This document shows positions 29,921 through 47,627 of a stretch of DNA of 64,000 nucleotides, piece after piece (within the stretch, counting starts at the first letter, position 1; each line of letters starts with the position of its first letter). The position numbers and the translations under genes are program-made. Source of the DNA: a virus (taxonomy: Duplodnaviria; Heunggongvirae; Uroviricota; Caudoviricetes); IMG/VR virus record IMGVR_UViG_3300021430_000416, positions 18,435-82,434 of that record; one strand, 5' to 3'. A model generated the notes under the pieces. It saw only the letters and a list, made by a program, of their open reading frames with translations. It had not been told where the DNA came from and ran no database searches.

Positions 29921-30348
29921 AAATAAAACTATTATTAATTGCAACATTGTTATTGTCCGCATGTGGTCCTTCTTACACACCTGAAGAAGAGGTAAGACTG
30001 AAAAGAGAAATCACCCGTTTAAGTGGTGAGAGAAGTGGGTTGGTTCAAGATGTAAGAACACTCCAAGGTCAACACGATATCTTAAAGAATGAGGTTTCTG
30101 TTTACCAAACTGAAAAAAAGATTTACGATTCGGGAAAAACGCCGGTCTATATTTTAACTCTCCATTTCCAAGAACATAAGATGGAACTATCCTTTGATAG
30201 AATCAGTTTCAGTTTCGATGTTCCGGTTGATGAGCAGTTCTACAAGGAAAGTAAAATCGGTTCAGAATTGGGTCATGGTTCTCGTTCATTTAAATTATTC
30301 CATAGTGGTGATATTACAATTGAGGATAAGAGAATAGAATATCGTTAA
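29917..30348 (+). CDS. lipoprotein
   Basis: Signal peptide LLSACGPS. Confidence 0.5.
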   Translation: MKIKLLLIATLLLSACGPSYTPEEEVRLKREITRLSGERSGLVQDVRTLQGQHDILKNEVSVYQTEKKIYDSGKTPVYILTLHFQEHKMELSFDRISFSFDVPVDEQFYKESKIGSELGHGSRSFKLFHSGDITIEDKRIEYR

Positions 30349-30716
30349 TGGGTGGATTCAAATTCTTACGTGGTTACGAAGGGGTAAGATTTGTTCCGGT
30401 ATTAGAACCGGGTGTGAGGTGGATTGATAGACCTGAACTTGAAATAAGTTATTTTGATGGAGGTGTGATTCACACAAGAAGATATCATAGTCAAATTTAT
30501 AATTTACGAGATTCTTCATTAAGGTCTTTTATTGACAATAACCCCGATGCGTATATAGCAATATTCCAAGCGATGCACGTACCCACAGGTACTTTAATAT
30601 CGGTTAGAGAGGGAAACGTAGAGCAACTAGATTTTAGACAACCAGACATGAATTATAGAATGGTGGTCATTAACGATTTAACCATACCTGAAAGAGAAAT
30701 TGATAGAATATTTTAA
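30348..30716 (+). CDS. FKFLRGY-family small protein
   Basis: N-terminus MGGFKFLRGYEG. One of six paralogs sharing this N-terminal peptide. Confidence 0.55.
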   Translation: MGGFKFLRGYEGVRFVPVLEPGVRWIDRPELEISYFDGGVIHTRRYHSQIYNLRDSSLRSFIDNNPDAYIAIFQAMHVPTGTLISVREGNVEQLDFRQPDMNYRMVVINDLTIPEREIDRIF

Positions 30717-30722
30717 AAAAAA

Positions 30723-30754
30723 TTTGGAATATACTAGAATTCGTTTTACATTTG
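30723..30754 (+). promoter_or_regulatory. class-A promoter (TTTGG-AATATACTAGAATTCG-TACATTTG)
   Basis: Diverged copy of the 12001/36623 promoter. Confidence 0.5.
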
Positions 30755-30791
30755 TCTTCACAAACAAACAAACAATAATGGTTTAAAACTA

Positions 30792-30944
30792 TGGAAAAGT
30801 ACAAAGTAACACTTTTAAATTCAAAGGATGAAGAAGTGTTAGTCACATTAGTTTACGCTACAGATTACGCAGATGCCGACAGAAAGGCCAAAGCGTTGGT
30901 TGAAAGTTCAAGAGATAAGAGTGTTGTATCTTATAGAATATTAT
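30792..30944 (+). CDS. small hypothetical protein (50 aa, below the ORF-track cutoff)
   Basis: ATG about 38 nt after the -7 box. MEKYKVTLLNSKDEEVLVTLVYATDYADADRKAKALVESSRDKSVVSYRIL. Confidence 0.3.
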
Positions 30945-30949
30945 AACCA

Positions 30950-31156
30950 ATGATTAAGTGTACAGACAAAGGTAAGTGGACTTGTATTGGTAGAAACGGT
31001 GTACCAAAGAAATCATTTAATGATGATAAGTCAGCAATAAGTGCTGCGAAAATTATAAATGAAAACACACCCGACTCACCAACTAAACTGGTGGCTTATA
31101 AGTGCACCCATTGTCAGAAATATCATTTATTATCAGTTAGAAGAAAAAAACAATGA
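30950..31156 (+). CDS. small zinc-ribbon protein
   Basis: CTDKGKWTC...CTHCQKYH. Confidence 0.45.
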   Translation: MIKCTDKGKWTCIGRNGVPKKSFNDDKSAISAAKIINENTPDSPTKLVAYKCTHCQKYHLLSVRRKKQ

Positions 31157-31443
31157 AACTATTTGGAAAACTTTTAATTCTATTACTCATAGTTTTGAGT
31201 AGTTGCGAAGAAGGTAATGTGAAATATTCTTGTGTTGAAGGAAACATTAGGATATTAAATAAAGAAAAGTATCCTTGTGCTAGAGGCGGTGGTGATTGCG
31301 TTTTCAAATTTTATCTTTACGATGGGAAAAACGCATATTGGTGCAACACCGATAAAACTACGTGGGATAACTACAATGTGAACGATACTTTACCAACAAT
31401 AGTAATTACAAAAACAGTTGTAGTTTCGGAGGGACATCAATAA
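31153..31443 (+). CDS. lipoprotein
   Basis: Signal peptide VLSSCEEG. Confidence 0.5.
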   Translation: MKLFGKLLILLLIVLSSCEEGNVKYSCVEGNIRILNKEKYPCARGGGDCVFKFYLYDGKNAYWCNTDKTTWDNYNVNDTLPTIVITKTVVVSEGHQ

Positions 31444-31715
31444 CATGACACACTATCCAATATTAATCATCAGGAAAGATGACAACGAAGAGTTTATTCA
31501 TTTGGGTGAAGGTATGTACAGAACGAAGTGGGGACTAATGAATAACAGTATTCAAGAGACTCCACTTTCTGCATTTGATGCGAATCATTTCACATTCTAT
31601 TATAAATGAAAAAAATTCTTATCATAGGGTTATCGTTATTACTAATGTCTTGTTCTGTTAAGAAAAGACAGATGCCCTATCGATATCAATATAAAAACAT
31701 TCCACATTTTAAAGT

Positions 31716-32021
31716 ATGATTGCATATAAATTAATCAGGAAGTTGAAGGATGGTTCGTTATCACCATTGTTCATCAACAAGAAGAGTAGAATACCCGTTG
31801 GTGTTTGGATGGATGCTGAATATCACCCAACAAAAGGATATGCCGGTAGAAAAGGTTGGCATTGTACATTGAAACCCAACGCACCACACCTATCAGAAAA
31901 GAACCGAGTATGGGTTGAGGTTGAGGTGGAAAACTATGAATACTACAATAGACCCGAATCACAAGGTGGTACTTGGGTGTTAGCACAAAGAATGAAAGTC
32001 ATTCGAGAATTAAACTCGTAG
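31716..32021 (+). CDS. hypothetical protein
   Basis: 101 aa ORF. Confidence 0.45.
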   Translation: MIAYKLIRKLKDGSLSPLFINKKSRIPVGVWMDAEYHPTKGYAGRKGWHCTLKPNAPHLSEKNRVWVEVEVENYEYYNRPESQGGTWVLAQRMKVIRELNS

Positions 32022-32045
32022 AAAATAAAATATTTTCATTATTTT

Positions 32046-32077
32046 TTTGGATATTCCGAAAAAATCAATTACCTTTG
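32046..32077 (+). promoter_or_regulatory. Bacteroidetes-type promoter (TTTGG-N19-TACCTTTG)
   Basis: Consensus -33 and -7 elements about 24 nt upstream of the ATG at 32101. Confidence 0.5.
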
Positions 32078-32100
32078 AAGTCAAATAAAAAAGAAAAGTT

Positions 32101-32325
32101 ATGATGAAATTTGTAATCATTGTCCTACTAATTGTGGGAGTAATTTCGGCACTAGTTTACATTGGTCAATTGATATTTGGCCAAAAGAAAACCCCTAACA
32201 CCACACTATCGGGATTAAAGACCGAGGTTGAGGAAACCGTTTCTAAAGTGAAAGAAACAAAGGAAAAAGTAAAAGACATCAATCAAGAGGTTGATGAAAT
32301 AAACGAAACACTTAAAAACTCTTAA
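32101..32325 (+). CDS. small membrane/coiled-coil protein
   Basis: 74 aa with an N-terminal TM helix. Confidence 0.45.
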   Translation: MMKFVIIVLLIVGVISALVYIGQLIFGQKKTPNTTLSGLKTEVEETVSKVKETKEKVKDINQEVDEINETLKNS

Positions 32326-32353
32326 TTAATCAAAACAAAACAAAAAAACAAAA

Positions 32354-33547
32354 ATGGAAAATCAAGTAAAAAACATCATTAAGATTGTCGTAGTTGCGGT
32401 TTTAGCAATCACTACACTGTTCGTAGCCCCAAAATTATTCGAGGACGTGGATGCCGGTGAAGTTGTAATCATCCAAGACCCGTTTGATGGTGAACTACAC
32501 GTTAACACAGAACCTGGTTTTGTTTGGCAAGGTGGTGGACGAGCGACTCACTATCGTAAATCAAATCAGTTTTGGTTCTCAGCACCTACTGAAGAAGGTC
32601 AACCAAACTTATCAATCCCTGTAAAATGGAATGACGGTGGTCACGCATCTATCTCGGGTTCTGTTCGTTATGACCTACCTACCGACCAAGTGAGTTTAAT
32701 TAAGATTCACTCAATCTTCGGTTCACAAGAAGCATTGGAAACTCAATTAATTAAAACAAACATTGAGAAGGCAATCTACATGACAGGTCCACTTATGACA
32801 TCTAAAGAATCATACGCAGAAAAACGTAACGATTTGATTTTCTACATCGAAGACCAAGCATCTCGTGGTGTGTATAAAACAAAACAGATTGAGGTGAAAG
32901 AAGTTGATGCACTTACTAACGAAGAAAAGTTGGTGACTAAAGTTGAGATTGTTGAGAAGACACCGGGTCAACCTATTCGTCAGGAAGAATCACCAATTAA
33001 ATCTTATGGTGTTCGTTTATATAACATCTCAATCAACGGCATCACCTATGATAAAGCAGTTGAGAAACAAATCCAAACTCAACAACAAGCAATCATGAAC
33101 GTACAGACCGCTATCGCAAACGCTAAGAAAGCAGAACAAGACGCTATCACCATTGCTAAACAAGGTGAGGCTGAAGCAGCAAAAGCTAAGTGGGAACAAG
33201 AGGTTATCAAGGCTAAGATGGTGACTGAAGCTGAAGCGAAACGTAAAGTTGCTGAAGAAGATGTTAAAACCGCTGAATTAAACAAACGTCGTGACATCCT
33301 TGAAGGTGAGGGTATTGCAGCTAAGAAAAGATTGGTGATGCAGGCGGACGGTGCATTGGAACAAAAACTTGCGGCTTGGAAATTTGCCGAAGAAAAGAAA
33401 TGGGATGCATTCTCTAAATTCTCAGGTAATATGGTTCCTCTTTATCAATCAGGTAATGGTAGTGGTAACAACAACGCCATGAATTGGATGGAGATTATGG
33501 GAATGAAAGCAGCTAAGGATTTAAACTTAGACCTTAAAGCGAAGTAA
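32354..33547 (+). CDS. SPFH/band-7 (prohibitin/HflK-like) membrane protein
   Basis: N-terminal TM helix. GEVVIIQDPFDGELHV..PGF is an SPFH core. The C-terminus is an Ala/Lys/Glu-rich coiled coil typical of HflK/C. Confidence 0.65.
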   Translation: MENQVKNIIKIVVVAVLAITTLFVAPKLFEDVDAGEVVIIQDPFDGELHVNTEPGFVWQGGGRATHYRKSNQFWFSAPTEEGQPNLSIPVKWNDGGHASISGSVRYDLPTDQVSLIKIHSIFGSQEALETQLIKTNIEKAIYMTGPLMTSKESYAEKRNDLIFYIEDQASRGVYKTKQIEVKEVDALTNEEKLVTKVEIVEKTPGQPIRQEESPIKSYGVRLYNISINGITYDKAVEKQIQTQQQAIMNVQTAIANAKKAEQDAITIAKQGEAEAAKAKWEQEVIKAKMVTEAEAKRKVAEEDVKTAELNKRRDILEGEGIAAKKRLVMQADGALEQKLAAWKFAEEKKWDAFSKFSGNMVPLYQSGNGSGNNNAMNWMEIMGMKAAKDLNLDLKAK

Positions 33548-33599
33548 TAAATATGGGTGTTGTTACCCTTGGTTACGACCAAAAATAAAAACAAAAGTT

Positions 33600-33624
33600 G
33601 GGGAGACTATTCTCCCCAATATTT
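33600..33624 (+). terminator. rho-independent terminator after the SPFH gene
   Basis: GGGGAGA-ctat-TCTCCCC hairpin followed by a T-rich tract. Confidence 0.5.
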
Positions 33625-34345
33625 CCCCGATTGTCGGTCAGTCCTAAACACGGTGTTCGAGTCACCATAAAAACGGTAGTGTTGCGGATGGTAGGTTCGA
33701 GTCCTATGTCGGGGGCAAACCTCAGAAGTAATTAATCTGAGACTGAGTGATTCGAAGCACTCGATTGGTTATGGTGTATTGGGCACAGTAGAACGGAGTA
33801 CCGACAGTTCACATGAGGACGGGGAAAGGGGATACGGGATTGGGTTCGACTCCCTTTAATCAACTAAAGACCCCACAATTGACGGACGTACTCATCTGTC
33901 ATGGTGTGTGAACCCGGCATGAAGGCTCCGGGGCTATGGGGGAGGCTACACAAAAAGTGAAACTCACATAATCTCTAATAAACGGGGTTAACTGATTTGG
34001 GGAAGTTCAATCAGGTGTGTTGGAATCGAAACCATGAGTTCCTCATTATGGGTTGAGAGGGTTAGGGACTTTAATTAGTCGTGTTGTAATCCACAAGTCG
34101 TAAAGATACTGAACAACTTTACGGTACACACTCTTCTTCCGAGTGAGACTCCCACGTAACTTTGGGGGTAGGGTGAAGATGTTCTGAGGGTATCCCTGAA
34201 AGATGGGAGAGAGTAGAGACCTATCGTGGATGGTTACTAAGTCTTAACGAATCTTGAGACTATCGGTAGGGATATTATGTCGCCAAATATAACTTTCAAA
34301 AGGTTCTCCCAAAATGGCGTGGGGATGGTTCAGGACCTTTTTTTA
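33625..34345 (+). ncRNA. candidate large structured non-coding RNA (class unknown) with an embedded tRNA-like T-arm/acceptor motif
   Basis: About 720 nt with no ORF of 60 aa or more on either strand. Locally much more G+C-rich than the flanks. Contains several GTTCGAGTC / GTTCGACTC T-loop hairpins and many G-rich helices, and ends in a T7 run at about 34338. Confidence 0.4.
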
Positions 34346-34358
34346 CATTAACCTTAAT

Positions 34359-34790
34359 ATGAAAAAACAATTTATAAAAGACTTACCAATTTACCTAAAT
34401 GGGTTTGCAGTTGGATTTATATTTTGGAGTCTCCCGAAGTACGATATAATAAGTATATTAATGTACATTCTATCAATGGTGACTTTCTTTTGGTACGGAA
34501 AAACTTTAACCAAAAAAGAAGAAGGGAGATTCATACCAAGAAAGTACAGAATATTCAATGTTGATGTTTTCAACGAATGGTTTAATGATAAAGAGAACGG
34601 TGCGGTTTATGCTAACTCCGGCATTTTCCTAAGATTGGATAAACTTTCAATCTCACACATCGAAGATTATTTAGTTAAATGTCACGGGTTGGAATTATCC
34701 AATTGGGATATTGATGAGGATGTGAGAAATTTCTACGAGGAAATTAGAAAAGACTGGTTAAACAAACTTAATCAAAACGAAACAAAATAA
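34359..34790 (+). CDS. hypothetical membrane protein
   Basis: Start taken at MKKQF. The upstream in-frame extension overlaps the ncRNA/terminator region. Confidence 0.5.
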   Translation: MKKQFIKDLPIYLNGFAVGFIFWSLPKYDIISILMYILSMVTFFWYGKTLTKKEEGRFIPRKYRIFNVDVFNEWFNDKENGAVYANSGIFLRLDKLSISHIEDYLVKCHGLELSNWDIDEDVRNFYEEIRKDWLNKLNQNETK

Positions 34791-34948
34791 TGGAACAGAA
34801 ATTTTTAATAACAGATGACCCACATACTGTACAGGGTTATTTAGATAAGGGTTGGAGGGTAGTGTCTGTAACTGCACAGGTGGTATCAACAGGGAAAGAT
34901 TATTCTTCTGAGAAAGGTAAATTTGCAATTGTTTTAGAAAGAGCACTA
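34790..34948 (+). CDS. small hypothetical protein (52 aa, below the ORF-track cutoff)
   Basis: MEQKFLITDDPHTVQGYLDKGWRVVSV... ATGA overlaps at both ends. Confidence 0.4.
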
Positions 34949-35397
34949 TGACACCAAAGATAAAAAGAAAGTGGATTAAAGAGGAGAAACGAATCGTTTA
35001 TCTCTTATATAGAAAAGGACTCTTAAAAGATTTTAAGGTGTCCGATTTGTATTGGGCCGAATATCATTGGTATCGTAAAAAATGTTATAAAACTAAGAAA
35101 AACAAATACGACGGTAAAAGATATAGATTCCCCATATACATGCCGGAGATTCATTATTGCACCACAGATTATTGGGGTGAGAGTGATGAACATAGCATCG
35201 TTTCACACGTACTTGATATGTTGCATTGGCAACATGTTGACATGGATAATTGGGATGACACATCAGGTGAGTGGCCTAAGTCAACATTCAAGAAAATGAA
35301 TAGAAGTCAATTCATTCATTACCTGAAAAAACTACCGACAGTAGTTCCCGACAATAAAGTAAACAAACTATTAAAAAAATGTTCATATGATGAATAA
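34948..35397 (+). CDS. hypothetical protein
   Basis: 149 aa ORF. Confidence 0.5.
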   Translation: MTPKIKRKWIKEEKRIVYLLYRKGLLKDFKVSDLYWAEYHWYRKKCYKTKKNKYDGKRYRFPIYMPEIHYCTTDYWGESDEHSIVSHVLDMLHWQHVDMDNWDDTSGEWPKSTFKKMNRSQFIHYLKKLPTVVPDNKVNKLLKKCSYDE

Positions 35398-35857
35398 TAT
35401 AGATAAGAAAAAATACGTCACATATGACCAAGCCGTAAAACTCAAAGAAAAAGAATTCAATGAGGAGTGTAAGTATTTTTACGACATGGAATTTAAAGAA
35501 CTAACATTCCACATTGGTGATGTTGGGGATATATATAGGAATTCAGAAATTGTGAATGGTTATGGTAAATTAAATTACCCAATGATATCTGCACCTAGAC
35601 TAACAGATGTGGTTGATTGGTTATTAAAACATCACGATATATGGGTTTACACTTACCCGGTTAAACCATTCAATCCTTTTGAGGGTGATGAACATTATCC
35701 AAATATTGTGTGGGTTAGTAAGGTTTTGTCACTTAAACAAGTTAACTTTGAAAAGTTTATCGATGCGGACAACGGTCTTGCGGTGAATCATCATCACACA
35801 CCCGAAGATGCAATCTCTGCGGCGTTAGACTTTTTATTGAAAGATAACACAAAGTAG
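35387..35857 (+). CDS. hypothetical protein
   Basis: 156 aa ORF. Confidence 0.5.
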   Translation: MMNNIDKKKYVTYDQAVKLKEKEFNEECKYFYDMEFKELTFHIGDVGDIYRNSEIVNGYGKLNYPMISAPRLTDVVDWLLKHHDIWVYTYPVKPFNPFEGDEHYPNIVWVSKVLSLKQVNFEKFIDADNGLAVNHHHTPEDAISAALDFLLKDNTK

Positions 35858-35870
35858 AATTAAACGGTGA

Positions 35871-36350
35871 ATGAATAACATTTTCAAATTCGGTCGAGGT
35901 TATTTAGATGGTCTCAAATATAGAATCACTGAAGAACATGGTGTAACTTATGTTGTTCACATTGATTTTGCTGAATTGTCTGAATGTTTAGACAGAAATG
36001 GTGTGAACAGTGTTGATACTCTATTCAATTATTGGAATAGTATGAATCGAAACCATTACGAGGTTATCGATTACACAAGACCCACCGAACAGATTAGGGT
36101 TGGTGTGGTTACCAACACTAGAGATTCATTTAGACGTTGGTTAGAGAGTAACAACATGGCATCTGTTATAAGAACGGTTCGTCAATCAGGACAGAATGTT
36201 CGTTTGGGAAATACTTTTTATAGGAACATAACAACTTCAACCGATTTTAGGGGATATACTTTTGATTATTTTATTGATACCGATAGTGCACATCTGAATC
36301 GTGAATTTAATGAGATTAATGAACAAAAAAGATACCGTTTAATCCAATAA
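35871..36350 (+). CDS. hypothetical protein, diverged member of the FKFLRGY family
   Basis: N-terminus MNNIFKFGRGYLDG. Confidence 0.5.
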   Translation: MNNIFKFGRGYLDGLKYRITEEHGVTYVVHIDFAELSECLDRNGVNSVDTLFNYWNSMNRNHYEVIDYTRPTEQIRVGVVTNTRDSFRRWLESNNMASVIRTVRQSGQNVRLGNTFYRNITTSTDFRGYTFDYFIDTDSAHLNREFNEINEQKRYRLIQ

Positions 36351-36355
36351 TAGTT

Positions 36356-36604
36356 ATGGCATACAAAATATACACCGAACAAAACCTAGCCGACACATCA
36401 AGAGACCCCGATGATGTTGTCATTGAAGAATTGGGTTACAAAAATAACTTAGATGATGCATTATTGTTAGGTAACAACTTCATAAAAGACAATTTCTTTC
36501 ACAAGGACACCACAATTAGACAAAGAACTGATGACACATACACCGCAACAGATTTTTGTAGTTACGGTAAAACCTTGATAATCAAGGAGATTGTAATTGA
36601 TTAG
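36356..36604 (+). CDS. hypothetical protein
   Basis: 82 aa ORF. Confidence 0.45.
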   Translation: MAYKIYTEQNLADTSRDPDDVVIEELGYKNNLDDALLLGNNFIKDNFFHKDTTIRQRTDDTYTATDFCSYGKTLIIKEIVID

Positions 36605-36622
36605 AAAAAAATCAAAAAAAAA

Positions 36623-36653: not shown

Positions 36654-36679
36654 TGATGTAAAATTAAATTTTAAAAATC

Positions 36680-38207: not shown

Positions 38208-38472
38208 TTTCTGTTATAAAATCATGGATGGTATGTATGAACCAAGATTACCATTGGAAAGTCAATGTACGGGTTACAAACTCTTGAGACAAATGGTGAT
38301 TAAGGATATCACACCGGCAACAAAAGAAGAGTTTGATAGATGGAAGAATAACCCAACAACCGAGGAACTACTGTCAGCACCTGATATCAAGTACTTAACA
38401 TTTTTACACGAACTATCAAGACCAATTGTTAGAGAACATTGGGATAAAATAAAACAGTTGAAGATTGATTAA
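38173..38472 (+). CDS. hypothetical protein
   Basis: 99 aa ORF. Confidence 0.45.
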   Translation: MMTVKKEMTFNDFCYKIMDGMYEPRLPLESQCTGYKLLRQMVIKDITPATKEEFDRWKNNPTTEELLSAPDIKYLTFLHELSRPIVREHWDKIKQLKID

Positions 38473-38687
38473 TGCGGGAGTTTAAATTCTTACGTGGATA
38501 TACCGGTAGACTTGAACAAGGTATTGTGTGGGTACCATATATTATACGTGAGACGGAACCGGTTGTGATTGAAACAAACATGGATTTAAGAAGACCCATA
38601 AGTGCAAGGTATTATGGAGCAATCGACCCGGCAACAAATCACTTTCAAACATTTAGAGTAACAGAACGAGATGGAAGAGAATTATAG
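38472..38687 (+). CDS. FKFLRGY-family small protein
   Basis: N-terminus MREFKFLRGYTG. Confidence 0.5.
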   Translation: MREFKFLRGYTGRLEQGIVWVPYIIRETEPVVIETNMDLRRPISARYYGAIDPATNHFQTFRVTERDGREL

Positions 38688-38934: not shown

Positions 38935-38935
38935 T

Positions 38936-39319
38936 ATGAAAGCAATCATCGCAGTAAACAATCTTGGATTCATTGGAATCGGTAACAGAATGTTATGGAA
39001 GTCGCCTGAAGACTTCAAACACTTCAAGGAGAAAACCATGGGTGGAAGACTATTGGTTGGTTACAACACATCATTGGAACTACCACCATTAAAAGGTCGT
39101 GAGGTTGTTATTGATACCCGAGGTTATTGGAATCCCGGTGTTGAAGTAATTGATTGGTGTATCGGTGGAAAGAAAACCTATGAGAAGTATTGTCATATGT
39201 TTACCGAACTTCATATCTCACACATTGATGATAATTCAATTGGTGACGTAACATTCCCTGATTTATCAAAGTTAAATTCGGACTGTAAAATATATCATTA
39301 TTATTTTAAATCTATATGA
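38936..39319 (+). CDS. folA: dihydrofolate reductase (short form); start at the internal MKAIIAV
   Basis: IIAVNNLGFIGIGNRMLW..EDFKHFKEKTMGGRLLVGYNT...IGGKKTYEKY...GDVTFPD match the DHFR N-terminal substrate/NADPH blocks and the C-terminal GG motif. Confidence 0.7.
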   Translation: MKAIIAVNNLGFIGIGNRMLWKSPEDFKHFKEKTMGGRLLVGYNTSLELPPLKGREVVIDTRGYWNPGVEVIDWCIGGKKTYEKYCHMFTELHISHIDDNSIGDVTFPDLSKLNSDCKIYHYYFKSI

Positions 39320-40026
39320 TTTACATACAATCAAATAACGAGAAGACATTACCACATCACTTCGATTGTGCATGTGGTTTATATGGTGCAATGGATTTGG
39401 GGATGGATTACAGATTGACAACCTTTGATGAGGTGTTGTCAGGTAAGTTCGATACCCTAATCAAAAGAAACCTATTCATTGGTTCAGTTGAATTTATGAA
39501 TGAAGTATTTTCTCGTGTTGGAAAGAAAGTAAATGCAATAGAGAATACCACAAGACCTTTTCAAGTTACATCTTTGGGTGAAGCATTATTGAGAGGTAAA
39601 TCGGGTGAAAAAATATTCATCAAACCAAAAGAAATAAAACTATTTACGGGTTTTGTGTTGGATGGGTACAATTATCCATCAATAGAATCCCTTCCACAGG
39701 ACACAGAGGTGTTTGTTTATGATGCATTTGATAGGAGTATCTTATCGGAGTGGAGAATTTATGTTCATAAAGGTGAAATTATCGATGCAAGAAACTATGC
39801 CGGTGATGTAATGACACTTCCCGATATCAATTTCATCACCCATATAATCAACACATACGGTAAAGATTTACCGGTTGCGTACACAATCGATGTGGGTATA
39901 TTAACATACACACAAGAGAACGTAGTAATTGAATTTAATGATATGTGGGCGATTGGTAACTACGGTATACCAAATGACCTATACATAAAACTATTGAGGA
40001 GTAGATACGAACAAATAATGTCATGA
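39316..40026 (+). CDS. hypothetical protein, possibly ATP-grasp-like
   Basis: KIFIKPKEIKLFTGFV...WRIYVHKGEIIDA...IEFNDMW resembles the ATP-grasp central/C-terminal pattern. Weak. Confidence 0.45.
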   Translation: MIYIQSNNEKTLPHHFDCACGLYGAMDLGMDYRLTTFDEVLSGKFDTLIKRNLFIGSVEFMNEVFSRVGKKVNAIENTTRPFQVTSLGEALLRGKSGEKIFIKPKEIKLFTGFVLDGYNYPSIESLPQDTEVFVYDAFDRSILSEWRIYVHKGEIIDARNYAGDVMTLPDINFITHIINTYGKDLPVAYTIDVGILTYTQENVVIEFNDMWAIGNYGIPNDLYIKLLRSRYEQIMS

Positions 40027-40232
40027 GAGAATTCAAATTCTTGAGAGGATATGAAGAGAAAAGGGTGTTCCATATTGATGTTGGGAATTTGGATGGTGAT
40101 GTGGAATACTTTACGGAACAATTGAGGAGAGCAATGTCAATTCCCGCTGCATATTTTAGACGAGAAATGTTGAACGAACCATTACAAGTAACAGAGGATA
40201 TTTTTATACCAGTAAGAAACAATGAACTTTAG
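40023..40232 (+). CDS. FKFLRGY-family small protein
   Basis: N-terminus MREFKFLRGYEE. Confidence 0.5.
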   Translation: MREFKFLRGYEEKRVFHIDVGNLDGDVEYFTEQLRRAMSIPAAYFRREMLNEPLQVTEDIFIPVRNNEL

Positions 40233-40590: not shown

Positions 40591-40593
40591 AAT

Positions 40594-40836: not shown

Positions 40837-41218
40837 ATTAAGAGATAAGGTTACTTGTGGTCGTGGATATAACCACGGAGAAGTATTCACGGTTGTTGGA
40901 ATTCGTGAACATGAATTGGAGTTGGAGGGTGATTGGAGTGGTGGTACTCATAATGTTTCCCAGAAGGATTGGGTTCCAATCGATGACTGCAAACTTTACA
41001 AAAGAGAAAAGGTTGTTGGTGATTTAGTTTGGTTGGATGGATATACCAGCATGGCACAACAAAATGCTAGAGAATATACAATTGAAAAGATTGAACATAA
41101 GTTCGACAAGGACACCGGTGTGAAATTCCCAATATACTTTGTTGCTGACAAATGGTTTGATGGAAGAGATGGTAGTCCATATGAGGATGATAAATCTATG
41201 TATTATATAGAATTTTAA
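40823..41218 (+). CDS. hypothetical protein
   Basis: 131 aa ORF. Confidence 0.45.
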   Translation: MDNYKLRDKVTCGRGYNHGEVFTVVGIREHELELEGDWSGGTHNVSQKDWVPIDDCKLYKREKVVGDLVWLDGYTSMAQQNAREYTIEKIEHKFDKDTGVKFPIYFVADKWFDGRDGSPYEDDKSMYYIEF

Positions 41219-41222
41219 TAAG

Positions 41223-41807
41223 ATGGGACAAAAAGGGATATTAGAAAAAAAGGATGACAAGTGGATGGTTAAATGGTCCGACTTACATTCTTTTGCACAT
41301 GGTACGCATTGGATGTACACGGAACTTTCACCGGAGTCAGATTCAATAAAGTATATTGATATGGGAGATATTATATGTAAACCATTGGAAGAGGGATTGA
41401 ATGTTGATTTCGAACTTCAGACCTTGGGTTATGATACCGAGAGTTTTGTTCCAACCAATATTGCTAAACTAGTATTCCCTGAAGTTGAAGAGTTTGAAAA
41501 ACAACAATGGATAAAAGAATATGTTATTAAAGGTAATCTTTTATTCTCAATAAGTGATGTCTCGGTAATGCGTGACGGTGGTACTATTATACTTTACAAC
41601 AGAGGTGCAAAACAAAAACCGTTCTATATCCATAAAGATAATTGGACATTACACAATGATTACCCAACAACCGATGATAACTTGGTAACAGATAAATCTG
41701 TACAAGTTTATGTTATGGATAGGTTGGGGAGGTATAAAGAGGATTGTGAATTTAATTTGAAAGAGATAAGAACCATTATTGAAAAAGTGAAAATATGCAA
41801 ATACTAA
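41223..41807 (+). CDS. hypothetical protein
   Basis: 194 aa ORF. Confidence 0.5.
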   Translation: MGQKGILEKKDDKWMVKWSDLHSFAHGTHWMYTELSPESDSIKYIDMGDIICKPLEEGLNVDFELQTLGYDTESFVPTNIAKLVFPEVEEFEKQQWIKEYVIKGNLLFSISDVSVMRDGGTIILYNRGAKQKPFYIHKDNWTLHNDYPTTDDNLVTDKSVQVYVMDRLGRYKEDCEFNLKEIRTIIEKVKICKY

Positions 41808-41971
41808 ATTTTTTAATCGTAGCAATATTCAATTTATATTGGTACTTTAAGGGTCCTGAGAATTATAAGAGACTATACAACGGTGGTTATTCCACATGGT
41901 TGAGTGCACTATTTTGGTTGTATGCGATATGGGGTGTGGTTAATTTATTCTACTCAATATTAACTCTATAA
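41795..41971 (+). CDS. small membrane protein (58 aa, below the ORF-track cutoff)
   Basis: MQILNFLIVAIFNLYWYF...WLSALFWLYAIWGVVNLFYSILTL. Two TM helices. Confidence 0.35.
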   Translation: MQILNFLIVAIFNLYWYFKGPENYKRLYNGGYSTWLSALFWLYAIWGVVNLFYSILTL

Positions 41972-42066
41972 TATGGTTGAAATTGCAAATGCGTTAGGGA
42001 TACTAGCTATCGGTGCGGCCATTTGGGGTCTTTATAAACTGTACAAAATAGAAAAGGAGATAAAAG

Positions 42067-42375
42067 ATGAAGAAATATAGATTCAAAATACAAAAATATA
42101 CCTTGAATAATGGTAGAATATACTATATTTGTAGGGTAAAGATTTTCCATCCATTTGTTTTGACTAGTGATGGGGTTGGTTTGTGGTTGAGAAACTACAC
42201 CGATAATGAGAGGAATCTCAATAAATACGGTGGTTCGTATTGGAATGAAGACAATGATGTGAAGTTTAAAAGTAGACAAGAAGTTTTGGATGGTATTGAA
42301 CTTTATATGAAAAACCGAGAAGATGAGGACGGTGATGAAATCAAATCAATTGAAACCGAAATAATTTGGAGGTAA
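42067..42375 (+). CDS. hypothetical protein
   Basis: 102 aa ORF. Confidence 0.45.
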   Translation: MKKYRFKIQKYTLNNGRIYYICRVKIFHPFVLTSDGVGLWLRNYTDNERNLNKYGGSYWNEDNDVKFKSRQEVLDGIELYMKNREDEDGDEIKSIETEIIWR

Positions 42376-42424
42376 TTGGATATACCATGATGATATCTCA
42401 CCCTTAAATAGATTAATTGGTAAA

Positions 42425-43906
42425 ATGAATCTTAAAGAAGAAAAATATAGAAAAAGAAAGAATTTCAGAACTAAGGAGGAATGTCACCAATACGCTCTGA
42501 AATATAAATCTATTAAAGAATTTATTGAGGGTGATGGTCATGTTTATTTATATGCTTCACGTAGAGGATGGTCACATGAGATAACATCTCATATGAGAAA
42601 AAATATCCGTTGGGTTGATAAAAAAGACGAGATTCGCCAAGCAGCATTAAAATATCAAAATAGAGGAGAATTTTGTTTAAAAGATGGAAGGTACTATGAA
42701 GTTGCTAGACGACGTGGTTGGCTTGATGATATTTGTGGTCACATGGTTTCGGTGGGTAATAAATTTAAAAGATTGGTGTATGTTTATGAATTTGAGGATA
42801 AAACGGTTTATGTTGGTTTAACATTAAATGACATAAAAAGAAGTCATTCACATAGTACATCAAACGATAGTCCGGTATATAGATATCAACAAGAAAAGGG
42901 TTTAAAACCTGTAAAAAAGATAGTAACCGATGGTTATATTGATTCAGAAGAGGCTAAGAAAGTTGAACACGATACTGTTGAGAAATATAAAAAATTGGGT
43001 TGGAATGTTCTAAATAAAACCAAAACGGGTGGATTAGGTGGGACAGATAGAATTTGGACAGATGAAAAAATAAAGGAAACAATATCTAAATACACGTATG
43101 AGAGTGAAGTAAGAAAGAATGAACCTAAATTGATAATGAAATTACGTAATATAGGTAAGATTGACGAATATTTAGGTGTTTTGATTAAAGATACTCCAAT
43201 TTATTGGAATGAAGAAAAGGTTAAGAAGGTAATTTCGGAACACACACATCTATTGGATTTTAATAATCAATATCCCGGTGCTAGAGCATGGATTCGGGTT
43301 AACAAAATGGAACATTTGTTGGATGGTTTGATTAGTAAAAATCGAGTAAGGCAAGTAAAGATTAGATGGAACAACAAAGAGGAAATTTTGAACATGGCAT
43401 CAAAGTATGATAACATCAGTAAGTTCCAAAAAGAAAACAGGGGGATGTATAATTCCGCCAAACAAAACGGTTGGTTAGATGATATAAAAAGGATTATACC
43501 ACCAAAGTTTTTATGGACAAAAGAAAAGGCCATGGAGGTTACAAAGAGATATACGGATTACCAATCGTTTAGGGTTGAGAATAAGAATGTATATGATGCG
43601 ATTAAGAAATATGGGTGGGACGAATGTTTAACTCACTTAAAAAGAACATTTAAAGAATTTTCATATGAATTGGTTAAAGAGGAGGCATTAAAATATAAAT
43701 GTAGAAATGATTTTTTTAATGGTTCCAACAACGCTTACGCATATGCGAATAGACATAATATTTTAGATGAGATAACAACTCACATGGAAAAAAGGAACGT
43801 AAAAGGACATAAAGAAGAAATTTTTACATGTAGTGTATGTGGTAAAAATGTGGGTGGTTATACCAATCTTAAAAGATGGCACGAAGATAATTGTAAATCA
43901 AAATAA
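42425..43906 (+). CDS. large tandem-repeat protein with a central GIY-YIG/T5orf172-like nuclease motif
   Basis: Central RLVYVYEFEDKTVYVGLTLNDIKRSHSH, flanked by at least 8 copies of a ~35-45 aa repeat (ALKYxxxxEFxxxxxxxYxxAxxxGWxDxIxxHM). Confidence 0.6.
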   Translation: MNLKEEKYRKRKNFRTKEECHQYALKYKSIKEFIEGDGHVYLYASRRGWSHEITSHMRKNIRWVDKKDEIRQAALKYQNRGEFCLKDGRYYEVARRRGWLDDICGHMVSVGNKFKRLVYVYEFEDKTVYVGLTLNDIKRSHSHSTSNDSPVYRYQQEKGLKPVKKIVTDGYIDSEEAKKVEHDTVEKYKKLGWNVLNKTKTGGLGGTDRIWTDEKIKETISKYTYESEVRKNEPKLIMKLRNIGKIDEYLGVLIKDTPIYWNEEKVKKVISEHTHLLDFNNQYPGARAWIRVNKMEHLLDGLISKNRVRQVKIRWNNKEEILNMASKYDNISKFQKENRGMYNSAKQNGWLDDIKRIIPPKFLWTKEKAMEVTKRYTDYQSFRVENKNVYDAIKKYGWDECLTHLKRTFKEFSYELVKEEALKYKCRNDFFNGSNNAYAYANRHNILDEITTHMEKRNVKGHKEEIFTCSVCGKNVGGYTNLKRWHEDNCKSK

Positions 43907-43924
43907 TGAAAATACATTTATAAT

Positions 43925-44194
43925 ATGAAAACTAATGAAGAAATAATTCAGCATTTAGAACCCTACATTAGAATGAAGGGTGAGGAATTGAGGACCAAGG
44001 TAACCATTGATAAGGTTACGAACCTATTTGAGGAGTATCTATGTGTCATGGTTGACATAAAATCCTCTTGGGTTGGTGTAAATGGAATCAACAACCGGGA
44101 TGTCACCATTAAGAGATTCCTAAAAAGAAATGGATTTACATATCATTCAATTGATTCCACATACAGGAGACCGTTTAATTATGAGAACATTTAA
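43925..44194 (+). CDS. hypothetical protein
   Basis: 89 aa ORF. Confidence 0.4.
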   Translation: MKTNEEIIQHLEPYIRMKGEELRTKVTIDKVTNLFEEYLCVMVDIKSSWVGVNGINNRDVTIKRFLKRNGFTYHSIDSTYRRPFNYENI

Positions 44195-44411
44195 TTATCC
44201 CGTTCCCGCATCGTTCTATGTAAAGAATGGTGGGAATATAATGGATAAGGTAATATTAACCACACCGGACATAACCGGTGCAAATCATCATATAAAGAAC
44301 CGAATCGGTGGGGATGGTTCTATTCTAAATCTCATTAATAAGGAAAACCCCGAAAATGAGACAAAGGTTCATATTGATATGTGTTGGGTAATTGCGGAGG
44401 TAAATCTCTAA
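44181..44411 (+). CDS. hypothetical protein (start chosen at MRTFNYP, overlapping the upstream stop)
   Basis: Alternative to the longer overlapping 44130 ORF. Confidence 0.35.
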   Translation: MRTFNYPVPASFYVKNGGNIMDKVILTTPDITGANHHIKNRIGGDGSILNLINKENPENETKVHIDMCWVIAEVNL

Positions 44412-44432
44412 AAAAACCATATATATGGATTC

Positions 44433-46505
44433 GTGATTTTAAAGAAAATAAATAACATGCCACGTAAATTAACATATGAATTATGTAAAGAAATAATCTC
44501 CCAATATAAAACCTATACGGATTTATATAAAAATGATGTTTCAGTTATAATGAAAGTGAAACAAAAAAAATGGGATGAGTTATTATCACACTTCGGACCA
44601 ATATATTCGAATAAAAATCCGAAGTGGACATATGAAAAGTGTAAAGAAGAGGTTTCAAAGTTTACTCACCTTAGTGAATTACAGGGGACAAGTGTGTCAC
44701 ACGCATTATTAAGAGAGGGTTGGTATGATGAGTTAACATCTCATCTTATTAGGGTACAACATAAAACATATACTAAAGAGGAAGTTTTAAATGAATCCAT
44801 AAAGTATAAAACAAGAGATAATTTTAGAGTGGGTTCTCCCAGTGCATATAATGCGGCAAAGAGATTAAACATTATGTTAGAGGCAACAAAACATATGGGT
44901 AAATCTCCAAATGAAAAACAATACACAAAAGAAGAAATATTAGAATCAGCTAAAAGATATGGAAACCAAAGGGATTGGAAAAATTCTGAAAGGTCAATTT
45001 TTAATTCTGCAAAGACTTACGATAAACCAAATGGTAAAGAAAGAGAATTTTGGTTGCAGTGTATAAGTCACATGGAGTATATATACAAACCTAACGGGTT
45101 TTGGACATATGAAAAGTGTGCGGAGATATCTAAAAAATTTAAAACTCTTAAAGAATTTAGGGAAGATTTAGAATTTAGAGTGGTTTACAGAAAAATAAAG
45201 GTTAATAAATGGGATGAATTATTATCTCATTTAGTATATCTCAATAAACCAAAAGGATTTTGGACATATGAAAGATGTAAGGAGTATGCTTTAAAGTATA
45301 CGTACCTTTCGGATTTTTATAATGAATGTGGTGCGGCATTAACTAAAATAAGAAAAAATAAATGGGATGAGTTAATTTCACATCTTAAACATAAATCAAG
45401 CAATCAAAACAGATACATATATGCGTTTGAATTTCCTGATAACCATGTATATGTTGGTTTAACATATAATTTGGAAAAGAGATTATCTGACCATTTAACA
45501 TCTAAAAGAGTAAAATCACCTGTTTTAATCCACAAGGAAAAGACGGGTTTGGATTTTGTTTACAAGAAAGTATATGAAGAAAAGTTCCATAAGGATATTG
45601 CGGGTAACATGGAAGGTCAAGCGATAAAACATTACCAAAAGAACGGTTGGATTTTATTGAACAAATCAAAGGCTGGTGGATTGGGTGGTGATAAAATGAA
45701 GTGGACCCACGAAAAAATACAACAGGAACTAATAGGTATAAAAACATTGACTGAAGTTAGAAAAAAACTACCTACACATGTTTTCAATGTTATCAGGAAA
45801 AAGGGTTGGTGGGATGAGTTTATCGCACCTCTTATTGATGATACTGGTAGAACTAAGTGGACGGTAGAATTGGCGATAGAGGAGATAAAGAAATATAAAA
45901 CAAGAAGAGAGATTCAACTCAATGCCAATGGTTTATATAAATTTCTTTACGCTAATGACTTATTAAAACACATACCCACTGTTAATTCATGGGCCCACAC
46001 GATAAAGGTAAAAGACATGTTCACCAAAGACGAGGTTTATGAATTTTTTCTACAGTTTAATTCGGGTGAAGAGGCTCGCAAAATTAATCATTCGTATTAT
46101 ACATGTGCCAAAGAAAATGGTTGGTTAAAAGACATTACCCGTTTATTAAAAGAAAAAAGGGGACCGGTTAGAATTAAAAAAAGAAACAATAAACTATTAA
46201 CGATATACACTAAAGAAATGTGTATTGAACGTGCATTGAATTATAAACATAAGATTGATTTTCAAATAGAAAACTCGGCAATGTACTCAGCGTGTAAGAG
46301 ATACGGGTGGTGGGAAGATGTTACAAAACACATGGTAAAAAAACCAAACAGGGTTGAGACTTATACATATGAGAAGGTTAGGGAATTAAGTAAAGGGTTT
46401 AAACATAGGAGTGAATTCCAAAAAAAACTACCGGGTGCGTTTAAATTTGTAAAAAAACACCAATTAATGGATGAATTATTCCCAATAAAATTTCGTAAAA
46501 TATAA
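44433..46505 (+). CDS. large tandem-repeat protein with a central GIY-YIG/T5orf172-like nuclease motif (paralog of 42425..43906)
   Basis: Central NRYIYAFEFPDNHVYVGLTYNLEKRLSDHL, with about 11 repeats of WTYEKCKE...KWDELLSHL / GWWEDVTKHM type. Confidence 0.6.
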   Translation: MILKKINNMPRKLTYELCKEIISQYKTYTDLYKNDVSVIMKVKQKKWDELLSHFGPIYSNKNPKWTYEKCKEEVSKFTHLSELQGTSVSHALLREGWYDELTSHLIRVQHKTYTKEEVLNESIKYKTRDNFRVGSPSAYNAAKRLNIMLEATKHMGKSPNEKQYTKEEILESAKRYGNQRDWKNSERSIFNSAKTYDKPNGKEREFWLQCISHMEYIYKPNGFWTYEKCAEISKKFKTLKEFREDLEFRVVYRKIKVNKWDELLSHLVYLNKPKGFWTYERCKEYALKYTYLSDFYNECGAALTKIRKNKWDELISHLKHKSSNQNRYIYAFEFPDNHVYVGLTYNLEKRLSDHLTSKRVKSPVLIHKEKTGLDFVYKKVYEEKFHKDIAGNMEGQAIKHYQKNGWILLNKSKAGGLGGDKMKWTHEKIQQELIGIKTLTEVRKKLPTHVFNVIRKKGWWDEFIAPLIDDTGRTKWTVELAIEEIKKYKTRREIQLNANGLYKFLYANDLLKHIPTVNSWAHTIKVKDMFTKDEVYEFFLQFNSGEEARKINHSYYTCAKENGWLKDITRLLKEKRGPVRIKKRNNKLLTIYTKEMCIERALNYKHKIDFQIENSAMYSACKRYGWWEDVTKHMVKKPNRVETYTYEKVRELSKGFKHRSEFQKKLPGAFKFVKKHQLMDELFPIKFRKI

Positions 46506-46511
46506 AAACAA

Positions 46512-46697
46512 ATGAGTAGAAGAACATATATTACTAAGTCAGAGTTAAATAAGGTGATGAAGTACCTCAAGGATAATACATTAATAACCGAAGTGGAAAA
46601 TGAGGTAATGACATTGAGGTTGTTGGATATTGATATAGAGGAGGTTTCACCCAGTCTAATGTCTAAAAACCATATATATAACATCGCGTGGGAATAA
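46512..46697 (+). CDS. hypothetical protein
   Basis: 61 aa ORF. Confidence 0.35.
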   Translation: MSRRTYITKSELNKVMKYLKDNTLITEVENEVMTLRLLDIDIEEVSPSLMSKNHIYNIAWE

Positions 46698-46720
46698 ACT
46701 AAATAATAATACTTCAACTA

Positions 46721-47059
46721 ATGAAATTAAAAACATTCATAGAAGAACTAAGGAATACAGATTTATATATCCAACACATATACACACAAGGAGGATGTTA
46801 TAAATTCTATATATTATTATCAAAGATGTATAAGAACTGCACCCCATATATATCCCAACATAAAAACCATATAATAACAAGGTACAAAAATAAGTACTAT
46901 GATATAAATGGAGAAGTAACAAACTTGGATGGATATACCCTATTAACCATAGAGGAAAAGTTAATGGTAGAAAGATGGTCATTCCATAAGAATAACCTAT
47001 TACAGTTAACAGAATGTCCGGTATGTGAAGAACCCATAGTATATGAGATAAACAAATGA
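46721..47059 (+). CDS. hypothetical protein (C-terminal CPVCEE)
   Basis: 112 aa ORF. Confidence 0.45.
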   Translation: MKLKTFIEELRNTDLYIQHIYTQGGCYKFYILLSKMYKNCTPYISQHKNHIITRYKNKYYDINGEVTNLDGYTLLTIEEKLMVERWSFHKNNLLQLTECPVCEEPIVYEINK

Positions 47060-47346
47060 TGGATGGTTTCAGATTATTAAGAGGGTATAATGTAAAAACC
47101 GCATATAATAATGGTTTAAAAGTAACCCTATATGAAGTTGGAAACAATAAGATGAATCTAACATTATCCTATTATGGTTTACCTAATCTATATGAAAGGA
47201 AAGATGTAATTGATATGGTAGGAACATTCAGGGAATATGAAATGTATGCAGATTTGATTGTAAGGATGCACAAACTAAATCCTGAAATGGGTCATTGGGA
47301 AATAAGACTTTATATGGAAGAACTATTCGATAATTTTGTAACATGA
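47056..47346 (+). CDS. FKFLRGY-family small protein (variant FRLLRGY)
   Basis: N-terminus MMDGFRLLRGYNV. Confidence 0.5.
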   Translation: MMDGFRLLRGYNVKTAYNNGLKVTLYEVGNNKMNLTLSYYGLPNLYERKDVIDMVGTFREYEMYADLIVRMHKLNPEMGHWEIRLYMEELFDNFVT

Positions 47347-47627
47347 TAGAATTTAAATTCCTAAGAGGTAACTTAAAGACGACATCACACTATGGAGATT
47401 ATACCCTGACATTGGAAACATTGGATGATAATTTACTCTTCATTGAGGTGACTCACAATAATGGAAATGAGTCCGCACTCATGTCCGAGATTATAGAAAT
47501 GGAGTATGATTATAAAGACTACTTGGAGTCAGGTAGAAACGCAATGGAGTACTTTAGTGAAGTTCCTGTAATGAGATTAAGGGAGAGAATGAGAAGGATA
47601 ATCAGTGCGACGTTTACGATAATGTAG
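47343..47627 (+). CDS. FKFLRGY-family small protein
   Basis: N-terminus MIEFKFLRGNLK. Confidence 0.5.
   Translation: MIEFKFLRGNLKTTSHYGDYTLTLETLDDNLLFIEVTHNNGNESALMSEIIEMEYDYKDYLESGRNAMEYFSEVPVMRLRERMRRIISATFTIM

Follow-up and report, generated by a model that had tools for sequence, protein, structure and literature searches.

A short N-terminal peptide shared by otherwise unrelated small proteins in an uncultured large phage and in phage-like environmental DNA

Short terminal peptides load diverse cargo into HK97-type shells in giant phages of the phiKZ/SPN3US type (propeptides) and in encapsulins (cargo-loading peptides), and a short N-proximal word marks the RxLR and PEXEL effectors of eukaryotic pathogens and the MIX-like effectors of bacteria. 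In phage T4, the internal proteins IPI, IPII and IPIII bear a 10-residue N-terminal propeptide, the capsid-targeting sequence (CTS), which is enough to bring IPIII, as well as foreign proteins, into the core of the prohead and is cut off by gp21 after loading; among the relatives of T4, the internal proteins vary and CTS-like leaders persist (PMC9026906, PMC3012670). The determinants of processing by the prohead protease lie at fixed positions (PMC9026906). Here, we analyze a 64,000-nucleotide stretch of a tailed phage genome (IMG/VR record IMGVR_UViG_3300021430_000416, positions 18,435 to 82,434; hereafter, the window) that encodes six small proteins starting with the same peptide, typically EFKFLRGY (hereafter, the tag), which is followed in each protein by a different sequence (hereafter, the body). 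By analogy, this arrangement appears to work most like the T4 system of CTS and internal proteins.

An earlier note on this DNA had proposed a common N-terminal peptide for six open reading frames (ORFs) of 69-159 amino acids (aa), and both the six starts and the size range are borne out by the ORF list. All six lie on the plus strand and are denoted here by their start positions. ORF 30348 (30348-30716, 122 aa, N-terminus MGGFKFLRGYEG, tag at nucleotides (nt) 30348-30383) begins within the stop codon of the preceding ORF (TAATG), and ORF 35871 (35871-36350, 159 aa, N-terminus MNNIFKFGRGYLDG, tag at nt 35871-35912) has the most degenerate tag of the six. These are followed by the two shortest members, ORF 38472 (38472-38687, 71 aa, N-terminus MREFKFLRGYTG, tag at nt 38472-38507) and ORF 40023 (40023-40232, 69 aa, N-terminus MREFKFLRGYEE, tag at nt 40023-40058), the latter with a start that overlaps the stop of a gene for an R2K ATP-grasp protein (ATGA). 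ORF 47056 (47056-47346, 96 aa, N-terminus MMDGFRLLRGYNV, tag at nt 47056-47094) overlaps a YunG-like gene upstream in the same manner, and is itself overlapped (ATGA) by ORF 47343 (47343-47627, 94 aa, N-terminus MIEFKFLRGNLK, tag at nt 47343-47378). As the note had it, these two genes are arranged in tandem at the end of the plus-strand block, of which ORF 47343 is the last gene. Altogether, five of the six starts overlap the stop of the upstream gene, via TAATG or ATGA. A further ORF on the same strand (31716-32021, 101 aa, start MIAYKLIRKLKDG) has a faint echo of the tag (aromatic-K-L-I-R-K) and a match to DUF3896 below the cut-off (24.4 vs 25 bits); a relationship to the tag family is improbable, and this ORF was left out of the member count.

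A six-frame scan of the whole 64 kb for the motif F[KR][FL][LG]RG[YN] returns exactly six sites, all of them at the N-termini of the tagged ORFs, and the motif sits 3-5 residues after the ATG in every copy (6/6). No matches occur in 300 residue shuffles of the six-frame translations of the window; given the six N-terminal copies, a chance origin of the tag is ruled out. When the DNA of the six tags is aligned, they differ in third codon positions, with alternation of CGT, CGA and AGA and of TTA, CTA and TTG. In 121 tag-bearing genes, the codon usage of the tag is the same as that of the body (TTT, 68% in the tag vs 73% in the body; AAA, 64% vs 69%; AGA, 64% vs 65%; TAT, 73% vs 80%). Because the variation is synonymous and the codon usage does not distinguish the tag from the body, the constraint is on the peptide rather than on the DNA or RNA, and both an RNA-level element and a recent duplication of DNA are ruled out. 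The earlier suggestion of selection on the peptide itself, as opposed to recent DNA duplication, is upheld, all the more so given the conservative amino acid swaps in orthologues.

These orthologues are found for all six window genes in a 26-kb contig of a Logan assembly (L107), at 50-73% identity, and for two of the genes in another contig (L046); all are tagged. The tags of these orthologues include MNNFKLLRGYE, MRDFKFLRGYT, MHKFNFIRGYIG and, in the L107 orthologues of ORF 35871 (64% identity), ORF 47056 (50%) and ORF 47343 (53%), MNKIFTFGRGY, MEEFKFLKGYT and MFDFKLLKGDLK, respectively. ORF 38472 has orthologues in L046, L107 and P0017, and P0016 is another relative of ORF 47056. The six homologues of ORF 40023 (65-73 aa) are all tagged (6/6), as are the eight homologues of ORF 30348 (64-100% identity, 8/8), with tags such as MNNFKLLKGY, MVNKYKLLRGY and MNEFKFGRGY. 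Across the orthologues of all six genes, the tags differ by conservative F/L, K/R and Y/F/N swaps; the 30348 family with its eight members displays F/Y, K/N, F/L, L/G/I, R/K and Y/F variation, and in this family the tag is kept as a degenerate motif that is not better conserved than the folded part of the protein. The motif, which the earlier note proposed to look for in related phages, is present in the orthologues and reaches far beyond a single genome.

The extent of this spread was assessed by scanning a degenerate DNA pattern for EFKF[L/F]RGY through three collections. Among the IMG/VR viral contigs, there are 10 matches, 9 of them at the N-terminus of an ORF, on contigs of 44-298 kb, including MREFKFFRGY, MVREFKFFRGY and MIEFKFLRGY; among metagenome contigs, ~37 of the 79 matches are N-terminal. 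Tag-bearing contigs include IMGVR_UViG_3300002835_000001 (297 kb) and 3300042474_001151 (176 kb). Prokaryotic genomes, sampled at one per species (596 Gb), contain 19 matches, none of which is N-terminal: all are internal or fall in tiny non-coding ORFs, so that a host or cellular motif is ruled out. The tag is confined to phage-like DNA. A looser N-terminal pattern, applied to the fetched loci, recovers ~130 distinct tagged ORFs of 40-170 aa, which form 37 BLAST clusters when the first 14 residues are masked; in all, the tag is fused to about 30 unrelated bodies. The tagged genes often come in tandem arrays, with six in 4.3 kb (L097), five in 1.6 kb (L094), and five or six in each of L060, L077, L076 and L049.

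Position-specific counts over the ~130 tagged ORFs give the consensus M-[V/I]?-[K/R]-[E/D/P]-F-K-F-[F/L]-[R/Q/K]-[G/K]-[Y/N], with F0 and K1 nearly invariant; since the sample was ascertained through the search pattern itself, these residue frequencies are indicative only. Behind the tag, there is a hydrophobic tendency at positions +10, +12 and +14, and [LIV]-x-E triplets can be discerned by inspection, irregularly and only in some members. The tag does not resemble a signal peptide or lipoprotein leader: its hydrophobic run is just 3-4 residues long and is followed by R/K-G-Y and polar residues. An amphipathic helix was considered as well, and the hydrophobic moments give no clear signal for it (helical moment 0.45 vs 0.39 +/- 0.19 in shuffled tags, strand moment lower than the shuffled value). 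A hydropathy scan of the ~130 tagged proteins, the six window members included, detects transmembrane-like segments solely in one family from outside the window (CL1).

Several of the environmental families recur. On many environmental contigs, among them L009 (331-2164, minus strand), L029, L030, L042 and L106, three or four tagged genes form the same conserved array. CL0 consists of Thr/Gly/Asn-rich proteins of ~120 aa ('TNPGYIVPQPYTITTTPGTGT'), CL1 of proteins of ~150 aa ('DGETYATASLNDDTPEGH'), and CL2 of Cys-containing proteins of ~74 aa ('FKFFQKNPYKDKCRL...GYYC...TPSAAGRQ'); CL0 and CL2 show a weak, unconfirmed likeness to segments of capsid proteins.

There is no description or family model of the tag, and no cultured carrier, in the resources that were searched; what is unusual about it is the scale and the presence of head-protein fragments among the tagged proteins. 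Pfam and PHROGs hold nothing for the tag, nor for four of the six window bodies, ORF 47056 among them. A search of the literature with the motif strings hits a single paper, on wheat peptides, which is unrelated. A profile of the first 40 residues, compared with 1.84 billion representative sequences, retrieves the window families, one spurious repeat protein and nothing else. The first 50 kb of the Bacteroides phage SJC03, which has the closest match to the helicase of the window, contain no N-terminal tag.

At least two of the six bodies are, judged by homology, pieces of head proteins of the T4 type: ORF 38472 contains part of the major capsid protein and ORF 40023 part of the portal. The earlier note, which suggested that the proteins may be effectors, missed this relationship; these two bodies are not anonymous. 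In ORF 38472, homology to the C-terminal strands of T4-type major capsid proteins spans residues 3-54 (nt 38478-38633). In a blastp comparison with the capsid protein of Cr30, residues 6-56 align with 370-422 (E 2e-4), and in an hhalign comparison of the 38472 family with nine capsid proteins, residues 3-54 align with probability 78% and E 1.9e-5, whereas the reversed control yields E 0.08 or worse. The aligned span corresponds to positions 367-420 of the 448 positions of the capsid protein and places 'EFKFLRGYTG--LEQGIVWVPYI...RYYGAIDP' on 'SEYFVVGYKGPNNYDSGIFWTPYI...TRYGIVANP'. The protein has no Pfam match at E<=1 and, at 71 aa, does not cover the full length of an HK97-type capsid protein.

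In ORF 40023, the homology is to a conserved segment of T4-type portals and spans residues ~12-54 (nt 40056-40184). The match to the Pfam family Portal_T4 (PF07230) scores 23.8 bits (curated cut-off 22.9; E 2.2e-5) and aligns residues 26-54 with profile positions 285-312; that to the portal family PHROG 213 has E 4.6e-5. In the blastp alignment with the Cr30 portal, 'EKRVFHIDVGNL', which directly follows the tag, is placed on 'ERRIWYVDVGNL' at 265-276, and the tag itself is outside the portal-like stretch. With 69 aa (65-73 aa in the homologues) and 28 of the 433 profile positions covered, ORF 40023 falls far short of the portal fold, and a comparison of the family profile with the sequences in PDB gives insignificant matches to KH domains and none to portals. 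On these alignments, ORF 38472 is homologous to Gp23, and ORF 40023 to Portal_T4, over a limited stretch; neither is itself a capsid or portal protein.

Further cases come from a search of 33 family representatives. Three of the 33 match Pfam Gp23, each in a different region of the profile: m72, residues 13-55 on positions 151-195 (E 3e-5); m64, residues 14-63 on positions 173-214 (E 4e-3); and m83, residues 15-44 on positions 4-33 (E 5e-3). For m83, tblastn leads to the capsid proteins of T4-like phages, and its blastp match to the capsid protein of Cr30 has E 1.8e-6. When a hidden Markov model (HMM) built from nine diverse T4-type capsid proteins was compared with real and shuffled tagged proteins, m119 (a tagged protein of L097, matched in its N-terminal part) scored 14.0 bits, the L046 orthologue of ORF 38472 12.9, m72 12.7 and m83 12.3, against 5.8 bits for the best of 2680 shuffles. 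The 45 C-terminal aa of ORF 35871 resemble m119 (E 2e-5), and ORF 35871 itself carries no capsid-protein signal. A capsid origin of ORFs 30348 and 35871 is not claimed, given that blastp values of E 0.08-0.5 were unconfirmed by HMM or hhalign comparisons; the match of one tagged protein to a tube protein (E 0.014) is within the noise of the shuffles and was likewise discarded.

The regions of the capsid protein that are sampled in this manner comprise the N-arm (m83, m119), the spine helix (m72, m64) and the C-terminal strands (38472), and in each case, as in ORF 40023, the fragment begins directly after the tag. That the bodies derive from non-overlapping parts of the capsid protein and portal argues that at least the 5' module has moved between genes. 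Similarity to head proteins is detected in ~5 of the ~35 body families; four of the six window members do not show it. The capsid-like tagged genes outside the window adjoin genes for glycosyltransferases and epimerases, not head genes. As a separate observation, m72 (L058, 2778-2972, +) and m64 (L054, 1612-1926, +) have a common C-terminal GGNRA and differing middles, so that GGNRA might be a second conserved terminal motif.

When the tag is left out, no two of the six window families appear related by hhalign (probability <=7.4%, from shallow alignments), and for the tandem pair 47056/47343 the probability is 0.2%. The statement of the earlier note that no obvious similarity is seen past residue ~12 is thus close to correct, except that ORFs 30348, 38472 and 35871 have a weak shared extension, 'LE.G[VI].W', which reaches to about residue 26 (E 1e-4 to 0.03). 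The AlphaFold2 (AF2) model of the 30348 family has a mean predicted local distance difference test score (pLDDT) of 65 and a predicted template modeling score of 0.61. In this model, the only usable one, the core (residues 30-108) is predicted to be beta-rich, with pLDDT 70-86, and the tag (residues 1-13), modeled from the same alignment, has pLDDT ~33 and no secondary structure, that is, lies outside the confidently folded core. Foldseek finds no match to this model in PDB, and the model of the 40023 family, with pLDDT 53, is unusable. A single fold with a conserved first strand, which the earlier note had named as a finding that would refute its idea, was not detected, as far as shallow alignments and one usable model, a weak test, can tell.

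How far does this arrangement parallel the T4 system? In both, a conserved N-terminal peptide of ~10 residues is attached to small (~70-190 aa), otherwise unrelated and fast-evolving phage proteins and persists while the bodies differ between related phages, and in both the genes often lie in variable clusters (PMC9026906, PMC3012670). In contrast to T4, the sequence of the tag is unrelated to the CTS, no conserved gp21-type cleavage position follows it, there are ~30 tagged families instead of a handful, one of these families is membrane-anchored and some of the bodies are head-protein fragments. In the window, no head genes of the T4 type turn up, and sequences of the Gp23 and Portal_T4 type are seen only as fragments inside tagged ORFs. 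The comparison with the CTS that the earlier note drew thus stands for a peptide module that is carried by unrelated small proteins and retained in orthologues, and not for the cleavage position or for similarity to internal-protein families. With respect to Gp23 (PF07068) and Portal_T4 (PF07230), the relationship is one of local homology, with other tagged proteins matching other capsid segments; the tagged proteins differ in being free-standing and short (64-157 aa, covering 30-100 of 450-550 residues), too small for the HK97 fold or the dodecameric portal ring, in carrying a foreign N-terminal tag and in being encoded in an accessory region. The propeptides of giant phages differ in lacking a shared word-like consensus across the cargo and the encapsulin peptides in being mostly C-terminal. 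The RxLR, PEXEL and MIX-like words resemble the tag, by way of analogy, in marking large and diverse repertoires of small proteins in tandem arrays, but involve other organisms and machineries, whereas the tag comes without a signal peptide and implicates no secretion system.

No cultured phage closely matches the window. Its UvrD-type helicase (4893-6806) shares 39% identity with proteins of the Bacteroides phages SJC03 and DAC (167-179 kb) and also matches proteins of Chryseobacterium and Flavobacterium phages; on account of these closest matches, Bacteroidota is the likely host phylum. The window is an accessory region of a large uncultured phage that probably infects this phylum. It consists of a plus-strand block (1-47.6 kb) and a minus-strand block (47.9-64 kb) of accessory and nucleotide-metabolism genes, among them those for an RNA ligase, nicotinamide phosphoribosyltransferase (9445-10947, +; PHROG 448, E 8e-161), ribose-phosphate pyrophosphokinase (PRPP synthase; 13435-14358, +), an SPFH protein, DHFR, a 4HBT thioesterase, the R2K ATP-grasp and YunG-like proteins, two GIY-YIG proteins and a ParB-like protein. 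The genes at 9445-10947 and 13435-14358 are close together and constitute a nicotinamide adenine dinucleotide (NAD)-salvage pair as in other large phages. The single tRNA gene, tRNA-Ser (anticodon CGA; 33625-33716, +), lies in a ~750-bp gap between the SPFH gene and the next block of ORFs.

The gene that precedes ORF 40023 (39316-40026, +; Pfam R2K_2, E 5e-27) belongs to the R2K clade of ATP-grasp enzymes, for which ligation of amino acids to proteins has been predicted. A link between R2K and the tag is not supported because in L107 the R2K gene is absent from this position and the 40023 orthologue directly follows DHFR. The orthologues of ORFs 40023 and 47056 are ~1.2 kb apart in L107 and ~6.8 kb apart in the window. 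The two GIY-YIG ORFs in this interval (42425-43906, 493 aa, and 44433-46505, 690 aa, both +) have a central domain (E 4e-4 and 3e-7, respectively) flanked by many repeats of ~35-40 aa ('...GW.DE(L/I)..H(M/L)...') and look like inserted homing-endonuclease-type genes. Scans for the T4 late promoter (TATAAATA), sigma-70 and terminator consensus sites show no enrichment. The two strand blocks converge at ~47.6-47.9 kb (47627/47921), and the gap between them contains a strong terminator-like hairpin (47868-47892, minus strand) with a 10-bp stem and a T-run behind it. The 260-aa product of a minus-strand ORF (61579-62361) has a faint, unconfirmed precomputed Pfam hint to AcrVA2-like proteins (PF26125).

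The interpretation that we favour, tentatively and at somewhat less than an even chance, is that the tag is a portable N-terminal docking or addressing peptide linking many small accessory proteins to one partner. The short motif, exposed at the extreme N-terminus, would dock many different small proteins to this common partner, for which the most concrete candidate is the phage's own assembling T4-type head (the scaffold, the capsid protein or the portal); the tag would then resemble the T4 CTS in function without being homologous to it. The head-targeting version carries about half of the weight that we give to docking as a whole. A docking motif is the simplest mechanism that would accommodate a fixed N-terminal word, constraint on the peptide, absence from cells, transfer to ~30 unrelated bodies, pieces of two head proteins among them, and tandem, fast-changing arrays; among phages, the T4 CTS is its one well-studied precedent. 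Since several bodies derive from head proteins, the head is loosely indicated as the site of action. Docking itself, the identity of the partner and any packaging or injection are inferred.

A number of observations weigh against this interpretation. The window contains no head or tail genes, nor do head genes occur near the tagged genes in the related loci; the tagged genes lie among accessory, early-looking genes to which they are translationally coupled. A position-specific table from -4 to +15 reveals no conserved residue past +6 and no protease-type site at a fixed distance after the tag, and no internal-protein family in Pfam or PHROGs is matched by the six ORFs or by the 27 other representatives. 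The abundant family CL1 has a C-terminal transmembrane helix in all 19 of its 19 members, which makes it a poor fit to capsid-internal cargo. In the 30348 family, conservation is lower in the tag, where Gly is the only invariant residue, than in the body, which has 37 invariant positions. In the 38472 family, the tag is colinear with a capsid-protein strand and the invariant GYKG turn that follows, so that it could belong to the fold as a strand instead of being a free motif; the alignment suggests that this tag could descend from the capsid strand or else that it marks a fusion junction with micro-similarity. The structural evidence is thin, consisting of one model with mean pLDDT 65 and another that is unusable. 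Finally, megablast and tblastn searches give no match in cultured phages for the window region or the tagged families.

Some of these observations are what would be expected under ordinary divergence, whereby the tag is the inherited first beta-strand and turn of an N-terminal hairpin, without an addressing role; the strand may come from the capsid 'YF[VT]VGYKG', the rest of each protein having diverged or been replaced. Such an origin, which we consider unlikely on balance, would explain why similarity extends to about residue 26 in three of the window proteins, why the tag of ORF 38472 aligns with the capsid strand and turn, why positions +10, +12 and +14 tend to be hydrophobic, as in a second strand, and why the tag of the 30348 family is not better conserved than the body. 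It does not sit well with bodies that are unrelated by hhalign and split into 37 BLAST clusters, with their derivation from non-overlapping parts of the capsid protein and portal, or with the placement of the tag outside the portal-homologous stretch in ORF 40023 and outside the core in the AF2 model. A different function altogether would follow if the bodies were mimics of the capsid protein and portal that act as decoys or antagonists of host sensors (Avs-type STAND, Lit/Gol-type or CapRel-type) or as dominant-negative inhibitors of the assembly of competing phages, with the tag needed for activity, for example, as part of the mimicked strand. The fragments do represent the most conserved segments of head proteins, namely, in the capsid protein, the N-terminal region with the 'Gol' stretch of T4 (m83), the spine-helix region and the C-terminal strands, and, in the portal, the segment 'RRVWYVDxGN', and occur as free-standing genes for 64-157 aa under purifying selection in accessory regions; moreover, bacterial STAND sensors are reported to recognise the folds of portals, terminases and capsid proteins (bioRxiv 10.64898/2026.01.04.697583). 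However, these sensors are reported to bind whole folds, not pieces of 30-50 residues (bioRxiv 10.64898/2026.01.04.697583), no defence gene or sensor is linked to the tagged genes, and head-like bodies account for only ~5 of the ~35 families, leaving out four of the six window members. Mimicry, which we regard as improbable, would also leave the presence of the tag on unrelated bodies unexplained.

Two more general explanations dispense with the head. The tag might be an expression module, in which the first ten codons or residues provide a good start for re-initiation and early elongation of coupled small genes, in a host group that probably lacks Shine-Dalgarno pairing, with new genes inheriting this start or converging on it. 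This proposal draws on the overlap of five of the six starts with the upstream stop, on the A/U-rich codons that encode every tag residue and on the likely assignment of the host to Bacteroidota, and a module that helps any new small ORF would account for fusion to arbitrary fragments. The identical codon choice in tags and bodies, though, implies no RNA-level signal; what is conserved is the order F-K-F-[FL], not mere composition, and the substitutions are conservative at the protein level (F/L, K/R). Most of the coupled genes in the same operons, furthermore, have no tag, all of which renders an expression module quite improbable. The composition of the tag (F, K, F, F/L, R/K) is typical of membrane-anchor, chaperone and degron sites, and an N-terminal position suits co-translational recognition, so that the tag could be a generic host recognition signal: a peripheral membrane anchor (MreB/MinD-like), a chaperone site (DnaK, trigger factor) or a degron (Lon, or ClpS after trimming). 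Sites of this kind are, however, normally degenerate rather than a fixed F-K-F-[FL] word, and the motif is absent from N-termini in the 596 Gb of cellular genomes; neither hydrophobic moment stands out in the direction of an anchor, and CL1 already has a transmembrane one. Generic recognition is, in our assessment, the least probable of these explanations.

The docking interpretation and the mimicry of head proteins can also be joined. In such a scheme, which we hold to be distinctly unlikely as a whole, a whole lineage of uncultured, large aquatic phages equips dozens of miniproteins with one universal handle, FKF[F/L]x[G/K]. Possibly exapted from the capsid 'YF[VT]VGYKG' strand, this handle may dock onto the nascent T4-type head by strand mimicry or, alternatively, could dock onto host sensors of head proteins; the capsid-protein and portal pieces would have been retained for use as decoys or modulators of assembly. 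If this scheme were true, it would amount to a system of tagged miniproteins without precedent in the described phages.

Should the tag serve for addressing or docking, it would provide a simple sequence rule for extracting the small-effector repertoire of a large group of uncultured phages from metagenomes, as illustrated by the ~130 ORFs recovered from one degenerate pattern, and a 10-residue handle that is directly testable by fusion to a reporter. The principle of the T4 CTS would then extend well past the T-even phages and to a much larger scale. If, instead, the tag is an inherited strand or an expression aid, it would be less important and would still serve as a marker of a fast-evolving class of genes. 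That conserved pieces of the capsid protein and portal exist as free-standing genes under purifying selection is unexpected in itself, and may bear on the evasion of head-sensing immunity or on the regulation or sabotage of head assembly.

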